From contig CP084166.1 of NCBI GenBank assembly GCA_021513695.1, positions 1 to 64,000 of the forward strand: DNA of 64,000 nucleotides, given 5' to 3'. This document shows positions 23,018-35,147 of this stretch, piece after piece. The stretch comes from Candidatus Heimdallarchaeum aukensis. Its GTDB lineage: Archaea; Asgardarchaeota; Heimdallarchaeia; Heimdallarchaeales; Heimdallarchaeaceae. Under the pieces are notes generated by a model that had not been told where the DNA came from, made no database searches, and was given only the letters and a program-made list of their open reading frames with translations. A program made the translations under genes and the position numbers. Within the stretch, counting starts at the first letter, position 1. The number at the start of each line of letters is the position of its first letter.

Positions 23018-25990
23018 TTAAATTGGGACTAGAATGTCGTATAAATTGTTATCGCCTATTTTTTCTTTTAGTAGTTTTTTTAGTTTTTGATTAATATCTT
23101 TATAAAAACGTAGTTTCATTTCAGAACTTAATTGCCAAGTGTTAAACTCTTGATTCACAATTAGGATATTTTCTTGCATTCTTTTAATTACATCTTCAAT
23201 CGAAAATACTGATGAGAATAAAATACCCATTTCTGAAATATTAAGATTTATTGTGTTAGGTGTTAATTCTTGTACTTTCTGCAGTAACGAAAGAGTATAT
23301 TTTAGTTCTGGAAAACTAATTAATTGTCCTTCTAGTTCTTGAATTGTAAATTGCCCAATAATATTAGCGTCGACTAATTGCTTAAATGGTTCAGTAAGCT
23401 CGTTGTATTCTCTGAAATACGAAACTGTGTAAAGATTTTCTAATTGTTCTCTTATTTCTTCTTTAATAATTTCTAGTGATTTGTTTGGTTCTTTATTTTT
23501 TAGTGCTAAATTAATAGTTGGAGATAGATGAATAAGAGATTCTTGAGTGATTTCGAATTTATTGTTTTCTGGAAGTTTTACTTTAAGAATATCAAAGGGT
23601 AACTCTGGAAGAGCTATATAGAACTCTTCTTCATTTTCATTTTCATGTATTGAATTATCTAAAAGAAACTCTCTAAAGTAAAGAGAAAATTTGGATAATT
23701 GACGTTTTAAACTTTCACTCCCCACAAAAGCTTTTTTCCTTAAGCCTAATTGTTGTTTTAGAATTTCTAATAGAGATGGGATTTCTATTTTGTTAAAAAC
23801 CACTTTGTTTTTATCTAAGGAAGGAACCCATTTATCTGAAGAGCCATATTCAACAGCTATTCTTCCTGCAGTAGTTGTTTCAGAGAATAAAGCTTCCATT
23901 CCATAACTAAGAATTAAATTAGTTAATGGAATGTAAGTAGCTTCGCTTTTACCAACAACAGCGATTCTAATAAAACCATACCCTGGATAAATAGAGTAAT
24001 TTCTAACTATTTCTCGGAGATCATTGTTTAAAACTATGGATAAAGTCATAGGATGAGTTAGCTCTATGGTATTTCCAACCATAAAAAAGTATCCAATTTC
24101 AAAGAAATCTTGATATTTGTTTAGAGGAGGAAGGAATCTTATTATATTGTCAATCGTTATAATCAATGGTGTTTCTACAAGCTGTAGAAGCTTCTTGTAT
24201 TTAATCTCTACATCTAGTTCTTGAAAACGCTCCTCATTTAATGTTCGTATGAGAAAATCCAAGAATTCACAACTTGTAATAAAATACTTATTGTCTTGAT
24301 AGGTAAAAAGGATACCATTATCAACCTTAGATTCCTCTATTTCATCAATAATTGAGAAAAATTTGTCTATTGAAATGTCTTCTTCTTTTTGTATTTTGTC
24401 TTGTTCATTTAGATTTAAACTAATCAAAAATTTATTGATAAATTCTATATTCTCATTTTCAGTAATAAAATCTTCTAGTGCTTTATAGCTTATTGAATAT
24501 TTTAAGTCTGAAACGCTAAAAGAAAATTTGTCATTCTCTTGACTTAAAAATTTAATAGTTTCTGAAAAGTTTTTTAACATTACTTTTCTATTTAACTCAA
24601 TATAAGCTAACATTTCTTTGAAAAATTGTACTTCATCATCAAAAAAAGCATAGTCAATATCAGTGTTATTTGCTGAATGCTTTGTTAAGTTTTTTATTAT
24701 TGAAATGAAGAAAGCCTTCATTCTAGTATCTTTCATTGCAGCTTGTTCTATAATATCAAGTAATATTTTGAGTTCGGGTGAGTTAGAACTCCTTTTTTCC
24801 ATTTCAGAAAGAATTTCATGAGGAGTCAACTCTTTACTTTTTTTCTCTCCAAAAGTGTGTTGAATTGATGATTTAGGATTATACGAATACCTGAGAAACT
24901 CTGATACTTTTTTTATTTTGAAACCTATATTACGAATATCTTTAGTCCAGTTTCCAGTTTCTAGATCACTAGCAAAAGAAAAAAGGTTCAGGAACTTATC
25001 TTGACTAAGTTCCAAGATCGTTTTGTTTTCTAGTTGTTCTGTATCTAGCGAATGCTGTTTATTTATTTTGTACAAAATATGCGCAAAATAAGCCATCACA
25101 CTTATACCAAAAGCTCTTTTTCTTTTTGAAAAAAGTGATTCTTCAGGATTTTCATTTAAGATTCGCATGAGTTCTCTAGAATAACTATTCAATAATCTAA
25201 TGTTAATAAATTCATTTTTCTTATCTTGTTTTTCAGGGCTTAAAGGAAAAATTGCTGGAACCATAAAGTTGTCAAATATCTGCGATGATTCATTTTCTTC
25301 TTTTATTTGTTTGAATCTATCAAAATTTTCCTTCATCAGCGAAGAAAAACTCCCCATAAAAAGAGACAGAGTTGGAAAAAAAGGTTCTTCTTTCTTCGAG
25401 TTAATGATTGAAAGTAGAACTTCTGTTTCTGGAACAAGAGAGTTAAGCATTTTTAAGATGCTCAATGTGCGTGAATCGATATTTTCTGTTTCTACAGTAA
25501 GTCCAATATGGGACGAAGATTTAAGAAAAGATTCTATTTCACTCATTATACTATTTATGAGTTCACGCAACTTTGATCCGTCTTCTTCTATTGATCTTAA
25601 TGTAGGATTAAACAAACACTTTCTGTACATCACTGCAGCTAAGTTCTGCCAATCTTCAAATTCTTCTATGTTTTTGTCAAGAATTGATAGAAAAGTAAGA
25701 AGAAACTCTTCTCCATAAAAACTGAATCTGGGAATGGTAACCAAATGACTTAAAATTTCATTAGTGTTGAACTTCTTTAATTTTTTATCTTTTTCAGCGA
25801 TTTCTTCTTTTTCTACTTTTTTTTCTCCTTTACTTGTCAAAACTTGTTTAATTATCTCTCTTGCAGGTTCTTGCGCCTTACTTCTACTTAATCCGTATGT
25901 GCGAATAAGATAGGTTACGACCAACCCAAAAGCGTCATCTCCATTTTCAATGATATTCTCCTTAAGTTCATCAGTAATATAGTAACTCAT
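23018..25990 (-). CDS. large hypothetical protein (990 aa), no recognisable catalytic motif
   Basis: Long uninterrupted ORF with coding-like composition. No Walker A, no metal-binding clusters and no TM segments seen. Confidence 0.5.
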   Translation of the reverse strand: MSYYITDELKENIIENGDDAFGLVVTYLIRTYGLSRSKAQEPAREIIKQVLTSKGEKKVEKEEIAEKDKKLKKFNTNEILSHLVTIPRFSFYGEEFLLTFLSILDKNIEEFEDWQNLAAVMYRKCLFNPTLRSIEEDGSKLRELINSIMSEIESFLKSSSHIGLTVETENIDSRTLSILKMLNSLVPETEVLLSIINSKKEEPFFPTLSLFMGSFSSLMKENFDRFKQIKEENESSQIFDNFMVPAIFPLSPEKQDKKNEFINIRLLNSYSRELMRILNENPEESLFSKRKRAFGISVMAYFAHILYKINKQHSLDTEQLENKTILELSQDKFLNLFSFASDLETGNWTKDIRNIGFKIKKVSEFLRYSYNPKSSIQHTFGEKKSKELTPHEILSEMEKRSSNSPELKILLDIIEQAAMKDTRMKAFFISIIKNLTKHSANNTDIDYAFFDDEVQFFKEMLAYIELNRKVMLKNFSETIKFLSQENDKFSFSVSDLKYSISYKALEDFITENENIEFINKFLISLNLNEQDKIQKEEDISIDKFFSIIDEIEESKVDNGILFTYQDNKYFITSCEFLDFLIRTLNEERFQELDVEIKYKKLLQLVETPLIITIDNIIRFLPPLNKYQDFFEIGYFFMVGNTIELTHPMTLSIVLNNDLREIVRNYSIYPGYGFIRIAVVGKSEATYIPLTNLILSYGMEALFSETTTAGRIAVEYGSSDKWVPSLDKNKVVFNKIEIPSLLEILKQQLGLRKKAFVGSESLKRQLSKFSLYFREFLLDNSIHENENEEEFYIALPELPFDILKVKLPENNKFEITQESLIHLSPTINLALKNKEPNKSLEIIKEEIREQLENLYTVSYFREYNELTEPFKQLVDANIIGQFTIQELEGQLISFPELKYTLSLLQKVQELTPNTINLNISEMGILFSSVFSIEDVIKRMQENILIVNQEFNTWQLSSEMKLRFYKDINQKLKKLLKEKIGDNNLYDILVPI

Positions 25991-26342
25991 TGTCTAAATT
26001 TACGGCAAAAATCTTCCTTTAAAATTTATTGTTACTCTAAGATGGGATAATAAATCAATAATAAGTTTAACTATTTTTTTCTTTTAAAAAAAGCATTTTT
26101 TTAATTTTGATAGCTAAAAATTGATTTGAGTGTATATTATTAGGAAGGCTGTGAAATTCTATCTAAATGTTATAGAGCATGCTTCTATTTTTTACGTAAT
26201 TTACAGTTGTTGAGGAAAAAGGAGAGGAAAAAGGGAAGAGAGGAAGGAGAGGGGTTTTTATAGAGAAAAAAAGTAAAATAAAAAGAGAAGAAGAAAAAAC
26301 AAGAGAAAAAATAAACAGAAAAGAAAAGAAGGAAGGAAAAAA

Positions 26343-27800
26343 ATGGTGGAAGACGTCGTCAAAACCTTGAAAGTGAGAATAAAGAAGGAGGTATTGACGA
26401 CGAGGAAGAAGGAAAGGTTAAGGAGAATAACGGGGAGAGACACGAGGATAATAGAGAAGTATGTGAGAATAATACATCACAACAGAAGAAAAATATGTGC
26501 TAAAACTAAAAAAGGGAAAATAAGAGTCCATAGAGGAAAACTAGATGAACTGACGCTAACTACTTCAAAAGTTAAAGAAGAAGAGAGAAGAAAGACTGTT
26601 CCTCACGATCTGAAGAAAATGTTCCCTTATTGTTCTCACAATGAATTCCAAGAATGTAGAGATATAGCCGTACAATTATATGAACAAGGGTATAGACCTA
26701 ACAATACTCGTCCTCCAATAAAGAGAGTTAGAAAACAACTAATTAATGCAAAGAGGTTTGTTCTCGTTCATCTGCCAAAAGAGAAGAATAACACTCTCAC
26801 TCGTTGGTGGGTGGGGATAAGAGACTCGTTAGATACGTGGAGAAGAAACACACCTTATCATCAGAAACTATGGTTACCTTTAGAGATGAGCACTTTCCAC
26901 CAGAAAGAGTTAAAGAAAGGAAGAATAAAAAGTTTAGAACTAAGATATAAACGTTCTACACATGAGTGGTGGGTGTATTTCCAACTAAAAGTCATTCCTC
27001 CTCCTTCTTTTTATCTCACAAGTCAAGGAGATAATTCTTCTTCTCTTCCCCCAGCTGTGCTGGGAATAGATCTAGGGATAAGCATTCCTGCTGCAGGAGT
27101 GCTTCTAACCCCTAAAAAGAAATTAACAAGTGAAGAAATAAAATTCTGGTATACCAAACAGTGGAATAAAGTTAATCACCGATATAAACTCAAACTTTCC
27201 CGTCTTCAGAGGAAAGCGGCTTTAAACGACCAGTCGGGTAAAAAACACCAGATTTACCGTTTTCTTGGTCTTCTCCGAAGAAGATATAAAAACGTTAAAC
27301 GAGCCTATATTTACCAATTTGTAAACGACATCGTGCAGACGATAGAGACTTATGCACAAGTGTATGACCTTTTTGTCGTTGTAGGTTATCCTAAACACAT
27401 TCGCGAGGAGAAAGGAAAGAGAAAAAGTACTCATAAGTTTCGTAGAAAACTTCATCAGTGGAACTTTTCTCTTGTTCTTGCCCTTCTTCGTCGAGCATTG
27501 ATACTTCGAGGATTTGAACCTCACCAAATATTAACGATAGAAGAAAGAGGGACATCCTCTCACTGTACTCGTTGCGGGAGGAAAGTTATCCGTCCCGTTA
27601 GAGGTTTAGTCCATTGCTCTTCTTGCAATTACACTTTCCACTCTGACCTCACAGGAGCAATGAATATCGCTCGTAAGTTCCTTGGTGCTCTTTTCCGTCC
27701 TCAAGGAAACACTATCACTGATTACCTCACTGGTCATAAATTCGGTCTCACTCATTTCACTGTTTGCCGAGGGCTCAGCCATTGGTTGCAGCCCCATTAG
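26343..27800 (+). CDS. tnpB: TnpB (IS200/IS605 OrfB, RuvC-like RNA-guided nuclease family)
   Basis: RuvC-I 'VLGIDLGIS'. C-terminal zinc finger 'CTRCGRK...CSSCNYTFHSDLTGAMNIARKF' (CxxC...CxxC followed by the RuvC-III-like HSD...N.A motif). Confidence 0.85.
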   Translation: MVEDVVKTLKVRIKKEVLTTRKKERLRRITGRDTRIIEKYVRIIHHNRRKICAKTKKGKIRVHRGKLDELTLTTSKVKEEERRKTVPHDLKKMFPYCSHNEFQECRDIAVQLYEQGYRPNNTRPPIKRVRKQLINAKRFVLVHLPKEKNNTLTRWWVGIRDSLDTWRRNTPYHQKLWLPLEMSTFHQKELKKGRIKSLELRYKRSTHEWWVYFQLKVIPPPSFYLTSQGDNSSSLPPAVLGIDLGISIPAAGVLLTPKKKLTSEEIKFWYTKQWNKVNHRYKLKLSRLQRKAALNDQSGKKHQIYRFLGLLRRRYKNVKRAYIYQFVNDIVQTIETYAQVYDLFVVVGYPKHIREEKGKRKSTHKFRRKLHQWNFSLVLALLRRALILRGFEPHQILTIEERGTSSHCTRCGRKVIRPVRGLVHCSSCNYTFHSDLTGAMNIARKFLGALFRPQGNTITDYLTGHKFGLTHFTVCRGLSHWLQPH

Positions 27801-28801
27801 ACAAAAAAGAACTTAACTAATTCTCTCCTCTTGTGTTAGAGTTAGTTTTCCTTCTTTCTTTTTTGTCTCTCGTGGAGTGAAGAAAGAAAGAAAAACTTTC
27901 TTTTCTTCTTTATGATTCCCACGATTCGTGTATGATGTCTGTCTCAACCCCTTCATAGCATTGTATGGCTTGGTTGAGTTCAAGAGATTAAACTCCTTCT
28001 GTTTTTTCTCTTGCAAGACAGAGTGCGAAAAACTTTACGTAAGAAAGTAAATCATGTTGAATGAGCAAAGATTATATAATGTGTATGACCTTTTTGTCGT
28101 TGTAGGTTATCCTAAACACATTCGCGAGGAGAAAGGAAAGAGAAAAAGTACTCATAAGTTTCGTAGAAAACTTCATCAGTGGAACTTTTCTCTTGTTCTT
28201 GCCCTTCTTCGTCGAGCATTGATACTTCGAGGATTTGAACCTCACCAAATATTAACGATAGAAGAAAGAGGGACATCCTCTCACTGTACTCGTTGCGGGA
28301 GGAAAGTTATCCGTCCCGTTAGAGGTTTAGTCCATTGCTCTTCTTGCAATTACACTTTCCACTCTGACCTCACAGGAGCAATGAATATCGCTCGTAAGTT
28401 CCTTGGTGCTCTTTTCCGTCCTCAAGGAAACACTATCACTGATTACCTCACTGGTCATAAATTCGGTCTCACTCATTTCACTGTTTGCCGAGGGCTCAGC
28501 CATTGGTTGCAGCCCCATTAGACAAAAAAGAACTTAACTAATTCTCTCCTCTTGTGTTAGAGTTAGTTTTCCTTCTTTCTTTTTTGTCTCTCGTGGAGTG
28601 AAGAAAGAAAGAAAAACTTTCTTTTCTTCTTTATGATTCCCACGATTCGTGTATGATGTCTGTCTCAACCCCTTCATAGCATTGTATGGCTTGGTTGAGT
28701 TCAAGAGATTAAACTCCTTCTGTTTTTTCTCTTGCAAGACAGAGTGCGAAAAACTTTACGTAAGAAAGTAAATCATGTTGAATGAGCAAAGATTATATAA
28801 T
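27360..28801 (+). repeat. perfect head-to-tail tandem duplication, 2 x 721 bp (27360..28080 and 28081..28801)
   Basis: Both reverse-strand ORF pairs (27606..27797 with 28327..28518, and 27813..28016 with 28534..28737) are identical at offset 721. I compared the unit ends base by base at the three junctions. Confidence 0.9.
28081..28521 (+). pseudogene. truncated tnpB 3' fragment (C-terminal ~147 codons) created by the tandem duplication
   Basis: Translation is identical to TnpB from 'VYDLFVVVGYPKH...' to the stop. It lacks the N-terminal two-thirds, including RuvC-I. Confidence 0.7.
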
Positions 28802-28836
28802 ACTTCTTTGACAAGTACTCAATTACTTTTAAAGAA

Positions 28837-30081
28837 GTGAAAAGAATGGTAAAGAGAAATCCAACACAATTTTTAGTTGACGAATACAAAAAAATTCAAG
28901 CTGAAGGAAGAGAGTGGGTTCATAGAAAATTAGAGACTCCATCTGTTCCTGAAGTAGTTGTAGATGGAAAGAAATTGCTAATGTTATGTTCAAATAACTA
29001 CTTGAACTTAAGTAATCACCCTCACTTGAAAAAAAGAGCTATTGAAGCAATAGAACAGCTAGGTGTAGGTTCTGGTTCTGTAAGAGCTATTGCGGGAAAC
29101 ATGGCAATTCATGAAGAATGGGAGCAAAAACATGCAGAGTTCAAAGAACAAGAAGCAGCAGTTGTATTTATGAGCGGTTTTATAGCAAATGAAGGTGCTA
29201 TTCCTCCCCTAGTTAGAAAAGATGACTTTATAATTAGTGATGAATTAAACCATGGTTCAATTATCGATGGTGTAAGATTAACAAAAACTCAAAGATCAAT
29301 TTACAAACATTGTGACATGGGTGATCTTGAAAAAAGATTGCAAGAAGCAGATAAGGCAGACCCTAACGGGGAAAAAAGAATTCTAGTTCTAACAGATGGA
29401 GTTTTCTCCATGGATGGAGATATGGCTCCTTTAGATGAAATACAAAAACTTTGTGAAGAATATGGAGCGATGATTTATGTAGATGACGCTCATGGTGACG
29501 GAGTTCTAGGAAGAGATAAGAAAGGAAAAGGAATAGTTGACCACTTTGGATTACAAGGAAAGGTACATGTAGAACTTAATACCTATTCTAAAGCAATGGG
29601 TGTAGTCGGTGGAGCAATAACTGGTTCTAAAGACCTTGCAATGTATTTGAAAAACACTGCTCGTTCTTACTTATTAAGTGGTTCTCAACCTCCATCTGTT
29701 GCTGGAGCTGCAATTGGTGCTCTTGAAGTACTAGATCCAAAATCCAAGTATTTCGAACCAGTAGTAGCAAAACTGTTAGATAACTGTGATTACTTCAAGA
29801 AAGAAATAGTAAATATTGGTTTTAACCATGAAATCACCGCTGCTGCAGCAAAATGTCCAACAGCTATCGTTCCTGTAATCTGTGGAGAAAATGATGTTGC
29901 AAGAAAAATGAGTGATAGATTGATAGAAGAAGGAATATTTGCTCTACCAATAGTATTTCCAATGGTTCCTCGAGGAACAGCAAGAATACGTGTTATGATG
30001 AACGCAGGACTAACAAAAGAACAGTTGGATCTAGCTCTTGGTAAGTTTGAAGATATCGGTAGAGAATTAAAAATATTCTAA
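28837..30081 (+). CDS. kbl: 2-amino-3-ketobutyrate CoA ligase / 8-amino-7-oxononanoate synthase family (class II aminotransferase, Kbl-like)
   Basis: Strong matches to Kbl: 'ISDELNHGSIIDGVRL', 'TDGVFSMDG', 'VDDAHGDGVLG', 'TYSKAMGVVGG' (PLP Lys). Confidence 0.8.
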   Translation: MKRMVKRNPTQFLVDEYKKIQAEGREWVHRKLETPSVPEVVVDGKKLLMLCSNNYLNLSNHPHLKKRAIEAIEQLGVGSGSVRAIAGNMAIHEEWEQKHAEFKEQEAAVVFMSGFIANEGAIPPLVRKDDFIISDELNHGSIIDGVRLTKTQRSIYKHCDMGDLEKRLQEADKADPNGEKRILVLTDGVFSMDGDMAPLDEIQKLCEEYGAMIYVDDAHGDGVLGRDKKGKGIVDHFGLQGKVHVELNTYSKAMGVVGGAITGSKDLAMYLKNTARSYLLSGSQPPSVAGAAIGALEVLDPKSKYFEPVVAKLLDNCDYFKKEIVNIGFNHEITAAAAKCPTAIVPVICGENDVARKMSDRLIEEGIFALPIVFPMVPRGTARIRVMMNAGLTKEQLDLALGKFEDIGRELKIF

Positions 30082-31116: not shown

Positions 31117-31152
31117 GCTATGATATATTCATATTTATAAACCTATTCTTAT

Positions 31153-32172
31153 CTTAAGAAGCATGTCCAAAAATTCTTTTTCACCTACTAAACGGTCCGA
31201 AGGAGTAAAAGGTAGTTGTAACAGAGGAGAGAACTGTACAAGGTAGAGAGGATGGTGGAGGGTAAACGATCAAGGATTGGGGGAAGAGAGAGTTTGAGGA
31301 GACCAAAGACGTGTTCGATACTACTACGATACTCGGGGTGATAATTATGATAAACGATACAGACCAGGGCAGAGACGATGAGCTTGAATTATTGGTTCGA
31401 GGGGAGGAGGAGAGGGATAACGAGCATTACTTTTTGGGGGAATAACAGGAAAAAAAGAATGTTGGCTAAGAAGACCGACGATATTTTCTGTCCAGTAGGC
31501 ACAGTCTCCATAAAATCGCAGGAAAGGTCTCAAGAGTGCAGAAGGAAGTTTCTGCCAGAGCAAACCGAAGACTTTACTATCGTGAGTGTTACTAGCAGAA
31601 TGAGCAAGAGAGACTATAGCTCGAGAGGGTAAACCAACTATAAGGTGTATCTTCCAGAAAAGTTTGGAGGTTTTCTTTAGTCCTCCTCTTGCCCACTTGA
31701 GAAAACGCCAAACAGAAGCTTGACGAATTTTAAACCCTGAACTATCCACCGCCATAGCTTTCAACCCTTTTTTCCTTACTATTTCCCTACCTAAATCTAT
31801 TATCCACCGCTCCAGCAACTCACTTTCTGTCGCTCTCCACACTGCATGAAAAGTAGATTTGGAAGGAATCTTCTTCATCCACCCCTCTTCTATCAAAAAA
31901 GCGCATAAAGACAACTTTTCCTCTAACTTCCTCCAAGCAATTCCTTCTATTCTCGCAATAATTGCTAAAGCCAGTATCACCCACCTTTCTGCTATTCTTT
32001 TTCTCCCTCTCTTACTTTCTCTCGGTTCCTCTTTCACCAGTTTCTTAAGGAAAGGTTCATTAATGCTTATGAATTCTCTTGCTTTGTGGGGGTCTATGAT
32101 CTGAAAGTAAGCCATACTTCCGACATAAACCCCCACATTAATAAAAATTAATTTTTGGGCATGCTTCTTAAG
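31153..32172 (-). mobile_element. IS5/IS4-like insertion sequence (~1.0 kb) with 13-bp terminal inverted repeats
   Basis: 'cttaagaagcatg' (31153..31165) and its reverse complement 'catgcttcttaag' (32160..32172) flank a DDE transposase gene. The region has a purine-rich tract and higher GC than the neighbouring sequence. Confidence 0.55.
31345..32136 (-). CDS. DDE transposase, IS4/IS5 family
   Basis: Three DDE-like segments: 'AVDSSGF', 'NTHDSKVF', 'YGDCAY'. Basic N-terminal part. Confidence 0.65.
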   Translation of the reverse strand: MGVYVGSMAYFQIIDPHKAREFISINEPFLKKLVKEEPRESKRGRKRIAERWVILALAIIARIEGIAWRKLEEKLSLCAFLIEEGWMKKIPSKSTFHAVWRATESELLERWIIDLGREIVRKKGLKAMAVDSSGFKIRQASVWRFLKWARGGLKKTSKLFWKIHLIVGLPSRAIVSLAHSASNTHDSKVFGLLWQKLPSALLRPFLRFYGDCAYWTENIVGLLSQHSFFPVIPPKSNARYPSPPPLEPIIQAHRLCPGLYRLS

Positions 32173-32258
32173 TTGATTAATGATCTATCTTAAAATTATT
32201 CTTTTTAATTATCTAATTAATAGAAAATATTAATATATAAGGTGGAAATAAACTGAAT

Positions 32259-35147
32259 ATGGCTATCAAAACCAAAAAAAACTCCACAAAGAAGAATTTA
32301 ATTACTGTTTTTGTAATTTTCTTGGTTTGTTTTAGTTTTATAAATTGTTTAACCTCTAACTTGTTAACTGTAGTAGCTTCAGGAAGCGGAGATTTTCCAC
32401 CTCCAAGTAGTGGAGAATGGACAATATCTCAAGAAACAATAGTTAATTCTGAAGTTATTTATATTAATGATTCAGTTTCAATAGAAAGTGGAGGATCTTT
32501 AGTATTAGAAAATTGTGTAATAGAAATGAATGGTAATGAAGATGACAAAGCTAATTTTATAGTTAATAATAATGGTAATCTTACAATAATTAATTCTAAA
32601 ATAGAAGCTTTTTCTGATTATTCATGGTACATCGAAGCAGAAGAAGGAGCTTCACTTAAAATTACTGACTCAACCCTAATAAACTTCAAAGGAAGCCAAT
32701 ATACATCAGTAATTACACTCTATAACAATTATTCTGAAATTACAAACAATAGTATCTCAAACTTCAAATATAAAGCCATTTTTGCTAGATTTACTAGTCA
32801 TCATAATAATATTACAAAAAACAAAATAAGTGGAGGGCTTGTTGGTTTTGAAGTAGTCGATGGATGGTACAACGAGATAAATGATAATGAGTTTCACTTA
32901 CTATCACAATTTGCGATTGCTATTAATAATGGTAGTTTTTCAAATATTCTTCGAAATAAAATATTTAATGTTTCTTCTATCGCAATCAATTTCCAAAAAT
33001 CAAAGAATGTTTTATGCAATAACAACAATATTTCTACGTCTAAAACTGCAATTGAGTGCTATTCAATCTATAATAGTAGTATCTCTAATAATATGTTCTC
33101 TAATATTCATGATTATTCAATTAGAGTATATACAGGGAATAATGTCACAATATCAAACAATTCAATTGATAATAGCGATTTAGCAAAAGGCATTATTAAT
33201 TCAGCTATTAGCCTGAGTGCGTGTAATAATTTTTCTATTAATGAAAATTCAATAATAAATACCCCAAGAACAGCTCTAGAAATTTTAAGTTCAACAAATT
33301 GTAGAATTTTTAACAATGTTTTTTCCATTAATAATTACTCTATCTTTATCTCTAGTTCTAATTATCTTGAAATTAAAAACAATTTACTATCTTATTCGAA
33401 TGATTATTCTATGTGGTTTATTAAATCAGATTTTTCATTGTTTGAAAACAACACAGTTAATTTTGGTCAATCTTGTGGAATTAGACTAAGTAGCTGTAAC
33501 AATAATTCTATATTAAGGAACATCATATTCAATAATAGTAAATATGGTATCGATATTTCTTCAAGTAATAATAATACGATACTGGAAAATGTTTTTGTTT
33601 TAAACAATAATGGTTCTATTCAAGCTTATGATAATGGATTAAATAATAGCTGGTATAGTAATTTAGAATCTGTTGGTAATTTTTGGAGTGATAATAATGG
33701 ATCATCTTTCTATTTAATAAATGGTGAATCAGGTTCTATGGATATTTTTGCGAATTATTCTGATTACGATAAAGATTTTATTCCTGATTATTATGAACTT
33801 GAAGTTGGTTTAGATATAACAATAAATGATGCTAATGACGACTTAGATGGGGATGGTTTGTCAAACTTCGAAGAATTTACTCTGGGTACTTTTCCTAATG
33901 ATCCTGATAGCGATGATGATGGTTTAATTGATTCAGTAGAAGTAGACTTGAAAACTGATCCTATGTCTAATGATACAGACAATGACAACCTTATTGATGG
34001 GTTAGAAATTCAATATGGATGTGACCCCTTTTCAAATGATACAGACATGGATGGACTAGATGACTGGTCAGAGATATTCTACTACTTCACTGACCCTTTA
34101 GATTATGACACTGATGGTGATGGGTTATCTGACTCTGATGAAGTTTATGCATATAATACAGACCCATTGGACGCTGACACTGATGATGATGGCTTAAATG
34201 ATGTAACTGAAGTACTAGGTTATGGTACTGATCCCAATGATGCAGATACAGATGGAGATGGATTAACAGATTACGAAGAAGTGATTGAATATTTTACTGA
34301 TCCTACGGATGTTGATACTGATGGTGATGGTTTAACAGATTATGAAGAGGTAAAATATTATGGAACAAATCCTAGGAAAGCTGACACTGATGGTGATGGA
34401 ATTTCTGACAATGATGAATTAATTCAAGGAAAAGATCCATTAGTCAATGAGAAACAAAGAAATGTAAGGATAATAATTATTGTATTTTCTGCTTTAGGTT
34501 CTGGTATACTGTTTATAGGATTAACTGTGCTGTTGATACTATTCCTGATAGAAAAGAACAAAAATAAAGAACAAGCATTGTTATCCCTTTTCAAGAAAAA
34601 AATTAGAGAACTAGAAAAGAAAATTAATATTATTGAAACAACAAAAATTGAAGAACTTATGTCTAAGACAGAAGAAAGAGCGAAAATTGATACTTTTTTC
34701 AATGAATTCCTTGAGGTTTTAGTGGACTTCGCAACATATTTTCTGGAAAATGAGGAATTAATTGAGAATAAAAAATGGTTACAAGCCAAAAAGAAGCTAA
34801 ATGAAGAATTAGATAAAGTGAGAGATTGGATTAATAAAAATCTACGTGCTCTAAAGGAATATGATATTTATGACAAACTAGTAAACCAGATAGATGGATT
34901 AGAAAATAAAGAAGAAATTAAGATTAGCAAGTTAGAAGCTTATAAGGAGATTGAAATTGCAAAAGGTATTTTGAGAGAATTCAAAAAAGTAGTAGAGAAA
35001 ACTTCTCCTTTTATCAACAAATTTTCCTATTCTACTTTAACTAAATATTGGGAGATTACAACTGAACTTATATTTGCTAATATGACACAGCTAGAAAAAA
35101 TTGAGGAAAAAATAAAAGATCTACTGGAAAGAGAGAAAACTCTATAA
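32259..35147 (+). CDS. large type-I membrane surface protein: signal peptide, parallel beta-helix (PbH1/NosD-like) repeats, thrombospondin-type-3-like Ca-binding repeats, TM helix, ~210-aa cytoplasmic coiled-coil tail
   Basis: N-terminal signal '[14 protein letters not shown]'. Repeated 'N-x-I-x-N-N' beta-helix rungs. About 10 '[12 protein letters not shown]'-type repeats. TM '[27 protein letters not shown]'. C-terminal K/E-rich heptads. Confidence 0.7.

Follow-up and report, generated by a model that had tools for sequence, protein, structure and literature searches.

A 64-kb window of the circular genome of Candidatus Heimdallarchaeum aukensis, the whole stretch of DNA analysed here, carries a 1.88-kb mobile element with a tnpB gene. 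The element lies in the spacer upstream of kbl, whose product is a glycine C-acetyltransferase-like aminotransferase (UJG40884.1). The best explanation overall, held with considerable confidence, is a TnpB element with an omegaRNA scaffold at 27762..28056 and a guide that starts at 28057. Element boundaries, a target tetranucleotide, terminal inverted repeats (TIRs), a covarying RNA structure and an intact catalytic triad in an alternative arrangement were all found. Heimdallarchaeum thereby gains a fully delimited TnpB element, with ends, target motif, candidate target-adjacent motif (TAM), predicted guide and covariation-supported scaffold, and with a matched empty site in a sister species. 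An earlier reading of the same DNA (the original prediction) had proposed an omegaRNA-coding right end behind tnpB. That proposal holds in substance, whereas the boundary and the guide it named were each off by 24 nucleotides (nt).

Ends, target motif and mobility of the element

The tnpB open reading frame (ORF; UJG40880.1) ends at 27800, as had been claimed, and 280 nt separate its stop from the start of an exact repeat at 28081 (Table 1). The window copy was compared with 12 related loci in Ca. H. endolithica PR6 and with 3 metagenome loci, giving 16 copies in all. Alignment of the 15 related copies to the window begins at about 26178 and holds up to 28056, beyond which they diverge fully. 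This divergence always begins just after ...AAAGTAAATCAT(G/A/T), that is, after ...AAATCAT(G/A/T); in the window the same end reads ...AAATCATG at 28056 and again at 28777. Behind the CAT of the right end, 12 copies have G, three have A and one has T, and this base does not always equal the base at the left end of the same copy.

Two comparisons of filled with empty sites lead to the same boundary. The orthologous kbl locus in H. endolithica (L097/L098) is empty and has a single TATG, in the context ...GATATAGAG-TATG-TTGAATGAGCAAAGATTATATAATACTTCTTTGACAAGTACTC...ATG(kbl), or in short ATAGAG-TATG-TTGAATGAGCAAAGATTATATAATACTTCTTTGAC. At the filled site the window reads ...TTATAGAG-CATG[element]...AAATCATG-TTGAATGAGC.... 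The second comparison is reciprocal: the window has a single CATG at 34046..34049, and the H. endolithica copy (L011; L097 10191..12016) is flanked by CATG on both sides. Judged by these alignments, the element spans 26178..28056 and was inserted into a single CATG or TATG, after which the motif, or part of it, stands at both ends.

The 24 nt that follow the right end (28057..28080) occur only twice in the window. In the first empty site they adjoin TATG on one side and ACTTCTTTGAC... on the other, which identifies them, by sequence comparison, as native flank carried along by a tandem duplication and not as part of the element. The original prediction had equated the right end with the end of the duplicated unit (28080/28801) and had placed the guide, ACTTCTTTGACAAGTACTC, from 28802 onwards. 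The duplicated unit does end there, and the two strings quoted in support, ‘...gattatataat’ and ‘acttctttgacaagtactc’, lie at the positions given for them. This placement of the end can nevertheless be given almost no credence, as the 15 other copies and both filled/empty comparisons put it at 28056/28777, and the 24 nt before 28802 are native flank that is present in the empty site too. The stretch 28802..28836 is ordinary DNA upstream of kbl, at least 25 nt past the end, and follows the 24-nt flank directly and almost unchanged in the H. endolithica empty site. Other copies with a different right-end boundary, which the original prediction had itself named as evidence that would speak against it, are thus what the comparison returned. 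Since the right end lies at 28056/28777 and not at 28080/28801, the guide would start at 28057/28778.

Both ends of the element are inverted repeats of 22–31 base pairs (bp). The left-end sequence CATGCTTCTATTTTTTACGTAA matches the reverse complement of the right end, CATGATTTACTTTCTTACGTAA, at 17 of 22 positions, and the repeats of a second subfamily match at 26 of 31. The junctions fit a target-site duplication (TSD) of 2–4 bp and equally a 2-bp (AT) crossover inside CATG, and both would also suit the symmetry of the ends. Such ends resemble those of double-strand-DNA transposons and are unlike the asymmetric hairpin ends of IS200/IS605 elements. Hairpin ends of the latter type were considered; by inspection, only AT-rich stems of 4–5 bp are possible and these are not kept between the subfamilies. 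Assignment to IS200/IS605 also finds no support in the inverted repeats at the ends, in the CATG, present at each end of the element but singly in the empty sites, or in the gene content, which includes no tnpA.

The element is non-autonomous, with tnpB as its only gene, because no transposase is found within it, beside eight more distant relatives or with matching ends in the fetched DNA. Specifically, no transposase gene lies inside its boundaries, and 10 ORFs neighbouring those eight relatives include no DDE transposase, Y1 transposase, serine recombinase or Cas1. The neighbours of the relatives are housekeeping genes or another TnpB. No further sequence with inverted repeats of the CATGMTTYWAYTTTTTRCG type was seen in the window or the fetched loci. 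One genome alone holds 11 or more complete copies, and their flanks are unrelated. A metagenome scan with the protein alignment returned distant relatives only, and further look-ups yielded nothing but orthologues of one known insertion.

Two loci illustrate the fate of individual copies. One insertion, ...GAAAAAAGAAA|CATG...CATA|TCAAAAGACACG..., is common to the H. endolithica genome and to contigs of four separate metagenome samples (L005, L099-L102), and is therefore old and fixed; CATA, not CATG, forms its right end. Another H. endolithica locus (L012 3001..3661, from 688369-694764) is a solo copy truncated at its 5′ side, which keeps the last ~130 tnpB codons, the whole scaffold and the right end, with no element sequence upstream of it.

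Candidate scaffold, nuclease and predicted guide

The candidate omegaRNA scaffold consists of the last ~40 nt of tnpB and the 256 nt after its stop. Across the 16 copies, RNAalifold returns 71 consensus pairs in nine helices, with compensatory changes at nine of the pairs. Nearly all alignment cells are paired (98.8%), compared with 41–51% when the partners are slid by 1–3 columns, and pairs with double changes number 9 against 1–5 in these slid controls. Folding, which had been suggested as a check, gives a structure far above chance: the minimum free energy is −92.5 kcal/mol on the + strand (z = −5.97) and −79.3 kcal/mol on the − strand (z = −3.07), so that the + strand folds better by 13 kcal/mol.

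Conservation follows the same outline. Non-coding blocks reach column identities of up to 0.95–0.99, above those of third codon positions in the ORF, and third-position conservation itself climbs from about 0.75 over the last 40 nt of the reading frame, where it attains 0.96 only within the final 20 nt. In the hairpin at 27771..27794, one compensatory pair amounts to a Pro-to-Ser codon change, which points to selection on the RNA and not on the protein. The open frames after the stop differ among the copies in strand, frame and length; no ORF is conserved on either strand of the 256 nt, in agreement with the earlier remark that only weak frames occur there. Two other remarks fared less well. 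The GC enrichment ascribed to 27801..28080 is marginal (33.9% against 30.6% for the window, where 1-kb windows spread over 25–40%), and the inverted repeat offered as an example (27968..27997) does not form a conserved hairpin, covering instead the 3′ arm of a conserved helix together with the 5′ arm of the helix that follows. Taken as a whole, the region most likely behaves as an omegaRNA-coding right end, being conserved, structured and free of ORFs, with a sharp end to its conservation.

An alternative is that the conserved region works only at the level of DNA or mRNA, as transposase-binding ends, a 3′ untranslated region (UTR) or a terminator for tnpB, and encodes no guide RNA. The last 22–31 nt are indeed a TIR that must serve transposition, and the region has no match in Rfam. 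The inverted repeat, however, makes up about a tenth of the conserved region; the other ~230 nt keep their + strand pairing by compensatory changes, including G-U pairs that would be mismatched on the other strand, and nine helices that end exactly at the transposon boundary would be needless for a terminator or UTR. An exclusively DNA- or mRNA-level role is accordingly improbable, and the omegaRNA scaffold is the reading followed below.

The encoded protein has a single Pfam match, PF07282, the Cas12f1-like TNB zinc-ribbon domain. In an alignment with 31 homologues, all from Asgard archaea wherever the source is named, D243, E401, D435 and the four zinc-finger cysteines (CxxC...CxxC) are invariant. 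The position of the canonical RuvC-II glutamate is occupied by an invariant glycine, G348; E401, six residues before CxxC, would serve as the alternative glutamate. The published pattern D{P}G-x(120-160)-E-x6-CxxC-x(12-18)-CxxC-x(4-8)-D (PMC10711439) fits the protein, whose RuvC-I motif is DLG, and 28 of the 31 homologues. Judged from this alignment, the RuvC catalytic triad is complete, in an alternative arrangement. Such an arrangement corresponds to the Fanzor-type ‘Ealt’, or alternative glutamate (PMC10711439), and catalytically rearranged TnpB clades are held to be probably active (PMC10691335).

Structural comparison is in keeping with this assignment. An AlphaFold2 (AF2) model with a predicted local distance difference test (pLDDT) score of 82.9 was matched by Foldseek over its full length to ternary complexes of Cas12f, TnpB and Fanzor2 (E 1e-15 to 1e-10, TM 0.5–0.6). 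The model thus gives the protein the TnpB/Cas12f fold, with WED/REC, split RuvC and zinc finger. In profile searches against the Protein Data Bank, Cas12f was closest (1.7e-19), followed by Fanzor2 (1.6e-10) and ISDra2 TnpB (0.005). Upstream of the gene, in the purine-rich leader at the left end, a TTTTTATAG conserved in both subfamilies lies at 26255..26263, about 80 nt before the tnpB start, and is preceded by GAGGGG. The motif resembles an archaeal TATA box that would serve tnpB.

Characterised TnpB, IS607-TnpB and Fanzor systems allow these parts to be joined, by analogy, into a likely mechanism. The segment 27762..28056 would encode a multi-helix scaffold whose 3′ end includes the right TIR and the terminal CATG. 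A transcript running through the right end would be processed to the ~295-nt scaffold with the flank TTGAATGAGCAAAGATTATA... appended as guide. By alignment, the boundary between scaffold and guide is sharp, with unrelated sequence beyond it in each copy. The predicted guide is TTGAATGAGCAAAGATTATA... from 28057 and from 28778, identical in both copies of the duplicated unit; on the evidence of the empty site it is not ACTTCTTTGAC... at 28802. TnpB and its RNA would recognise the same 20 nt, preceded by CATG/TATG, a candidate TAM suggested by the two empty sites, at a transposon-free allele. A cut there, followed by repair from the occupied copy, would restore the element. RNA expression, TnpB binding and TAM-dependent cleavage are likewise predicted from these related systems.

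Several observations weigh against this reading. The NCBIfam model guided_TnpB scores 76 bits (E = 2.7e-21), below its curated cut-off of 100 bits. The covariance search proposed as a check matched no Rfam family at the gathering threshold anywhere in the window, and a search of 27300..28900 at E up to 10 gave chance-level hairpin matches only. A covariance model built from the close copies (R1, 255 positions) had no significant match in 37 metagenome loci with default filters or in 11 with the filters off. As this model finds nothing beside relatives of 31–41% identity, the structural support comes from one closely related family, with 79–96% protein identity. Within that family, one divergence into two subfamilies accounts for many of the compensatory changes, and helices 1, 6 and 7 are invariant, or nearly so, and show no compensatory change. 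Both ends of the RNA, 5′ and 3′, are inferred only. Finally, the right end itself ends in CATG, so a plain CATG TAM would fail to tell an occupied from an empty site.

A fifth TAM position may bear on this last point. In 16 independent left flanks (window 26177; L001-L014, L095, L096) T is missing from the position just ahead of the terminal CATG (five have A, four G and seven C), whereas the corresponding base at the right end is always T; no mirror-image bias is seen on the 3′ side of the copies. The chance of finding no T in 16 flanks is estimated, post hoc, at ~0.001 for a T frequency of about 0.35, and at ~0.01 if the constant C of the second subfamily is counted as part of the element. 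This contrast suggests, likewise post hoc, a VCATG TAM that would spare the occupied site. A layout related to that of the proposed scaffold has been described for Fanzor1 and Fanzor2*, where TIR and TSD lie within the scaffold, the RNA runs ~15 nt further and the guide comes after them (PMC10711439).

A tandem duplication at the right end

The duplicated unit reported in the original prediction was recovered as a perfect tandem duplication of 721 bp: 27360..28080 is 100% identical to 28081..28801, with no microhomology at the junction. The unit joins 697 nt from the 3′ part of the element to the 24-nt flank, and no other long direct repeat occurs in the 64-kb window. As that flank is continuous with ACTTCTTTGAC... 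in the empty site, the duplication arose after insertion or during assembly. The second scaffold is followed by the same flank and therefore brings no new guide. One annotated product, the ‘transposase’ UJG40882.1, is a chimeric ORF across the junction (Table 1). It was created by the duplication and is probably an artefact of annotation, not a real gene.

An assembly artefact, in which long-read scaffolding put two short-read contigs that both ended in the repeated element end to end and left their 721-bp overlap unmerged, is a serious possibility, if somewhat short of an even one. The copies are 100% identical and the junction (GATTATATAAT|GTGTATGACC) shows no microhomology. Assembly of the genome started from metaSPAdes contigs, which LRScaf joined into scaffolds by means of Nanopore reads from multiple-displacement-amplified DNA, and ended with Pilon polishing (PMC8813620); the element is multi-copy in the H. 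aukensis genome, and no independent assembly of the locus is on record. Against an artefact stands the place of the edge: the end of a contig from a k-mer graph should coincide with the repeat boundary, 28056, and not lie 24 nt inside unique flank. In addition, a junction without spanning reads might have come to light in the Pilon polishing, at 346x coverage, and the window holds no second duplication of this kind.

A genuine and recent duplication, credited with an even chance, could have arisen spontaneously, or through a double-strand break 24 nt past the right end with copying from the sister chromosome and end joining, a course that would yield precisely this structure. The locus belongs to a published circular genome in which its product is annotated, and the unit ends, on its right side, 24 nt past CATG, at the far end of the predicted target. 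In Fanzor, TnpB and Cas12 the cut falls within the 3′ part of a ~20-nt target or shortly after it (PMC10530073), and the right end carries the target motif CATG, so that self-cutting is conceivable. For a 721-bp unit that spans the end, the chance that the right edge falls within a given 10-nt window is put at ~1–2%, a post hoc estimate made here. The event is single, however, with no second example among the 16 copies; protection of the occupied site is hinted at by the base before CATG, which is never T in the left flanks but is T in the element's right end; and an artefact is at least as likely an origin. Short proteins in the clusters provide no recurrence of partial duplications, as they are N-terminal fragments or partial at contig ends, and L012 is a simple 5′ truncation. 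A target of the predicted guide near the left breakpoint of the duplication (27336..27359) was also considered; inspection found no similarity.

It is unlikely that the right edge is the scar of an in vivo TnpB cut at its own occupied locus, repaired by sister-chromosome copying and end joining. Were it so, a natural genome sequence would testify to TnpB cleavage in an Asgard archaeon, along with an imperfect discrimination between self and non-self. The locus also draws attention to a spurious ‘transposase’ entry (UJG40882.1) in the annotation of a reference Asgard genome, and to a possible error in its scaffolding.

Relation to known systems and neighbouring features

The locus is most probably an ordinary, if neatly delimited, TnpB-omegaRNA system, and it leaves the understanding of how such systems work unchanged. 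A single tnpB, multiple copies and the lack of a transposase of its own are features it shares with tnpB-only IS200/IS605 elements (the ‘IS1341’ architecture, such as ISDra2). As in TnpB-omegaRNA systems of the ISDra2 type, the putative structured, non-coding RNA begins within the 3′ end of the ORF and extends as far as the right end, the guide (here predicted) comes from the flank outside that end, and the motif next to the protospacer is the insertion motif. In contrast to IS200/IS605 elements, its ends are TIRs with the tetranucleotide on both sides, in place of asymmetric ends with sub-terminal hairpins. It also differs from the ISDra2 type in a scaffold that extends 256 nt past the stop and in the relocated RuvC-II glutamate, and the profile match to ISDra2 TnpB is just E = 0.005, compared with 1e-19 to Cas12f.

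A glycine in place of the RuvC-II glutamate together with a conserved alternative glutamate is a feature shared with the RIIr and DDE-associated branches of TnpB (Altae-Tran et al. 2023, PMC10691335). Several such rearrangements of the catalytic site are nearly exclusive to archaea, and the same work describes solo tnpB genes whose ends a transposase can use in trans, as well as DDE-associated TnpBs with symmetrical inverted ends (PMC10691335). Unlike the DDE-associated TnpBs, the present family has no DDE transposase beside it (10 ORFs, eight relatives), and the protein is not placed in a named branch. Asgard Cas1-associated TnpB transposons have a Cas1 neighbour and, downstream of tnpB, a hypervariable stretch followed by a GTTCACTCA motif (PMC10691335). 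No Cas1 lies beside the element or its relatives, and the conserved GTTCACTCA motif was not found after 28056 or 28777.

There are also parallels with Fanzor1 and Fanzor2* elements (Yoon et al. 2023, PMC10711439; Jiang et al. 2023, PMC10530073), non-autonomous transposons with TIRs and TSDs whose sole product is the nuclease. Shared with Fanzors are the alternative glutamate six residues before the zinc finger, a TAM that agrees with the insertion site, and a scaffold that extends well past the ORF and absorbs the TIR and the duplicated target bases, with the guide after them. The differences are an archaeal host instead of a eukaryote or virus, DLG instead of DPG in RuvC-I, and a sequence and fold that profile and fold searches place closer to Cas12f and TnpB than to Fanzor. 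An archaeal TnpB thus appears to combine a Fanzor-like alternative glutamate, an inverted-repeat transposon and a scaffold that absorbs the repeat and the target bases, an arrangement so far discussed mainly for eukaryotic Fanzors.

IS607 TnpB elements resemble the present one in having ends of the double-stranded-DNA type with identical short bases at both junctions, and in a fixed right-flanking base within the RNA scaffold. They differ in their serine recombinase, none of which was seen here, and in the shared motif, which is GG and not CATG (core AT?). The ends of IS607 are described as asymmetric.

Table 1. Features of the element and its surroundings, by position in the window
Feature	Position	Strand	Evidence
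Left end, TIR CATGCTTCTATTTTTTACGTAA; first four bases CATG, a copy of the target tetranucleotide	26178..26199	+	Start of homology, empty site
tnpB, 485-aa RNA-guided nuclease (predicted) with relocated RuvC-II glutamate	26343..27800	+	PF07282, guided_TnpB, alignment of 31 homologues, AF2 model
Candidate omegaRNA scaffold, copy 1, ~295 nt	27762..28056	+	RNAalifold, covariation, z-score, conservation; 5′ limit inferred
Helix 1	27762-67/28047-52		
Helix 2	27771-80/27784-94		
Helix 3	27796-808/27859-70		
Helix 4	27872-78/28032-38		
Helix 5	27879-86/27901-08		
Helix 6	27911-18/23-30		
Helix 7	27937-40/28016-19		
Helix 8	27943-49/27972-78		
Helix 9	27981-93/28001-13		
Right end, TIR ...TTACGTAAGAAAGTAAATCATG; true boundary after 28056	28035..28056	+	15 copies, empty site
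Native flank TTGAATGAGCAAAGATTATATAAT, predicted guide of omegaRNA copy 1, inside the duplicated unit	28057..28080	+	Continuity with empty site
Chimeric 155-aa ORF, annotated ‘transposase’ UJG40882.1	28054..28521	+	ATG of the terminal CATG, 24-nt flank (8 codons), then TnpB residues 339-485
Second copy of the unit: 3′ part of tnpB (codons 340-485, stop 28519..28521), scaffold copy 2 (28483..28777), right end 28777, flank/predicted guide 28778..28801	28081..28801	+	Identity to 27360..28080
‘Guide-adjacent flank’ of the original prediction; ordinary sequence upstream of kbl, 25-59 nt past the right end	28802..28836	+	Empty site

Two further features of the window lie outside the element. Upstream of it, a 990-aa ORF (23018..25990, −) has no Pfam match and no counterpart at the matching place in H. 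endolithica; there, homology with the window begins no further upstream than 26046. Downstream, what looks like an IS5-like insertion sequence at ~31146..32180 contains an ORF (31345..32136, −) for a 263-aa DDE_Tnp_1 transposase and is bounded by inverted repeats of ~19–23 bp (GAAGCATGYCCAAAAATT), with TTA on both sides. This DDE element was considered as the source of a partner transposase for the TnpB element and set aside, the ends of the two being unrelated. The homologous segment in H. endolithica has CTA as its flank and sits on the opposite side of the kbl block; either it has moved or the block has been rearranged.

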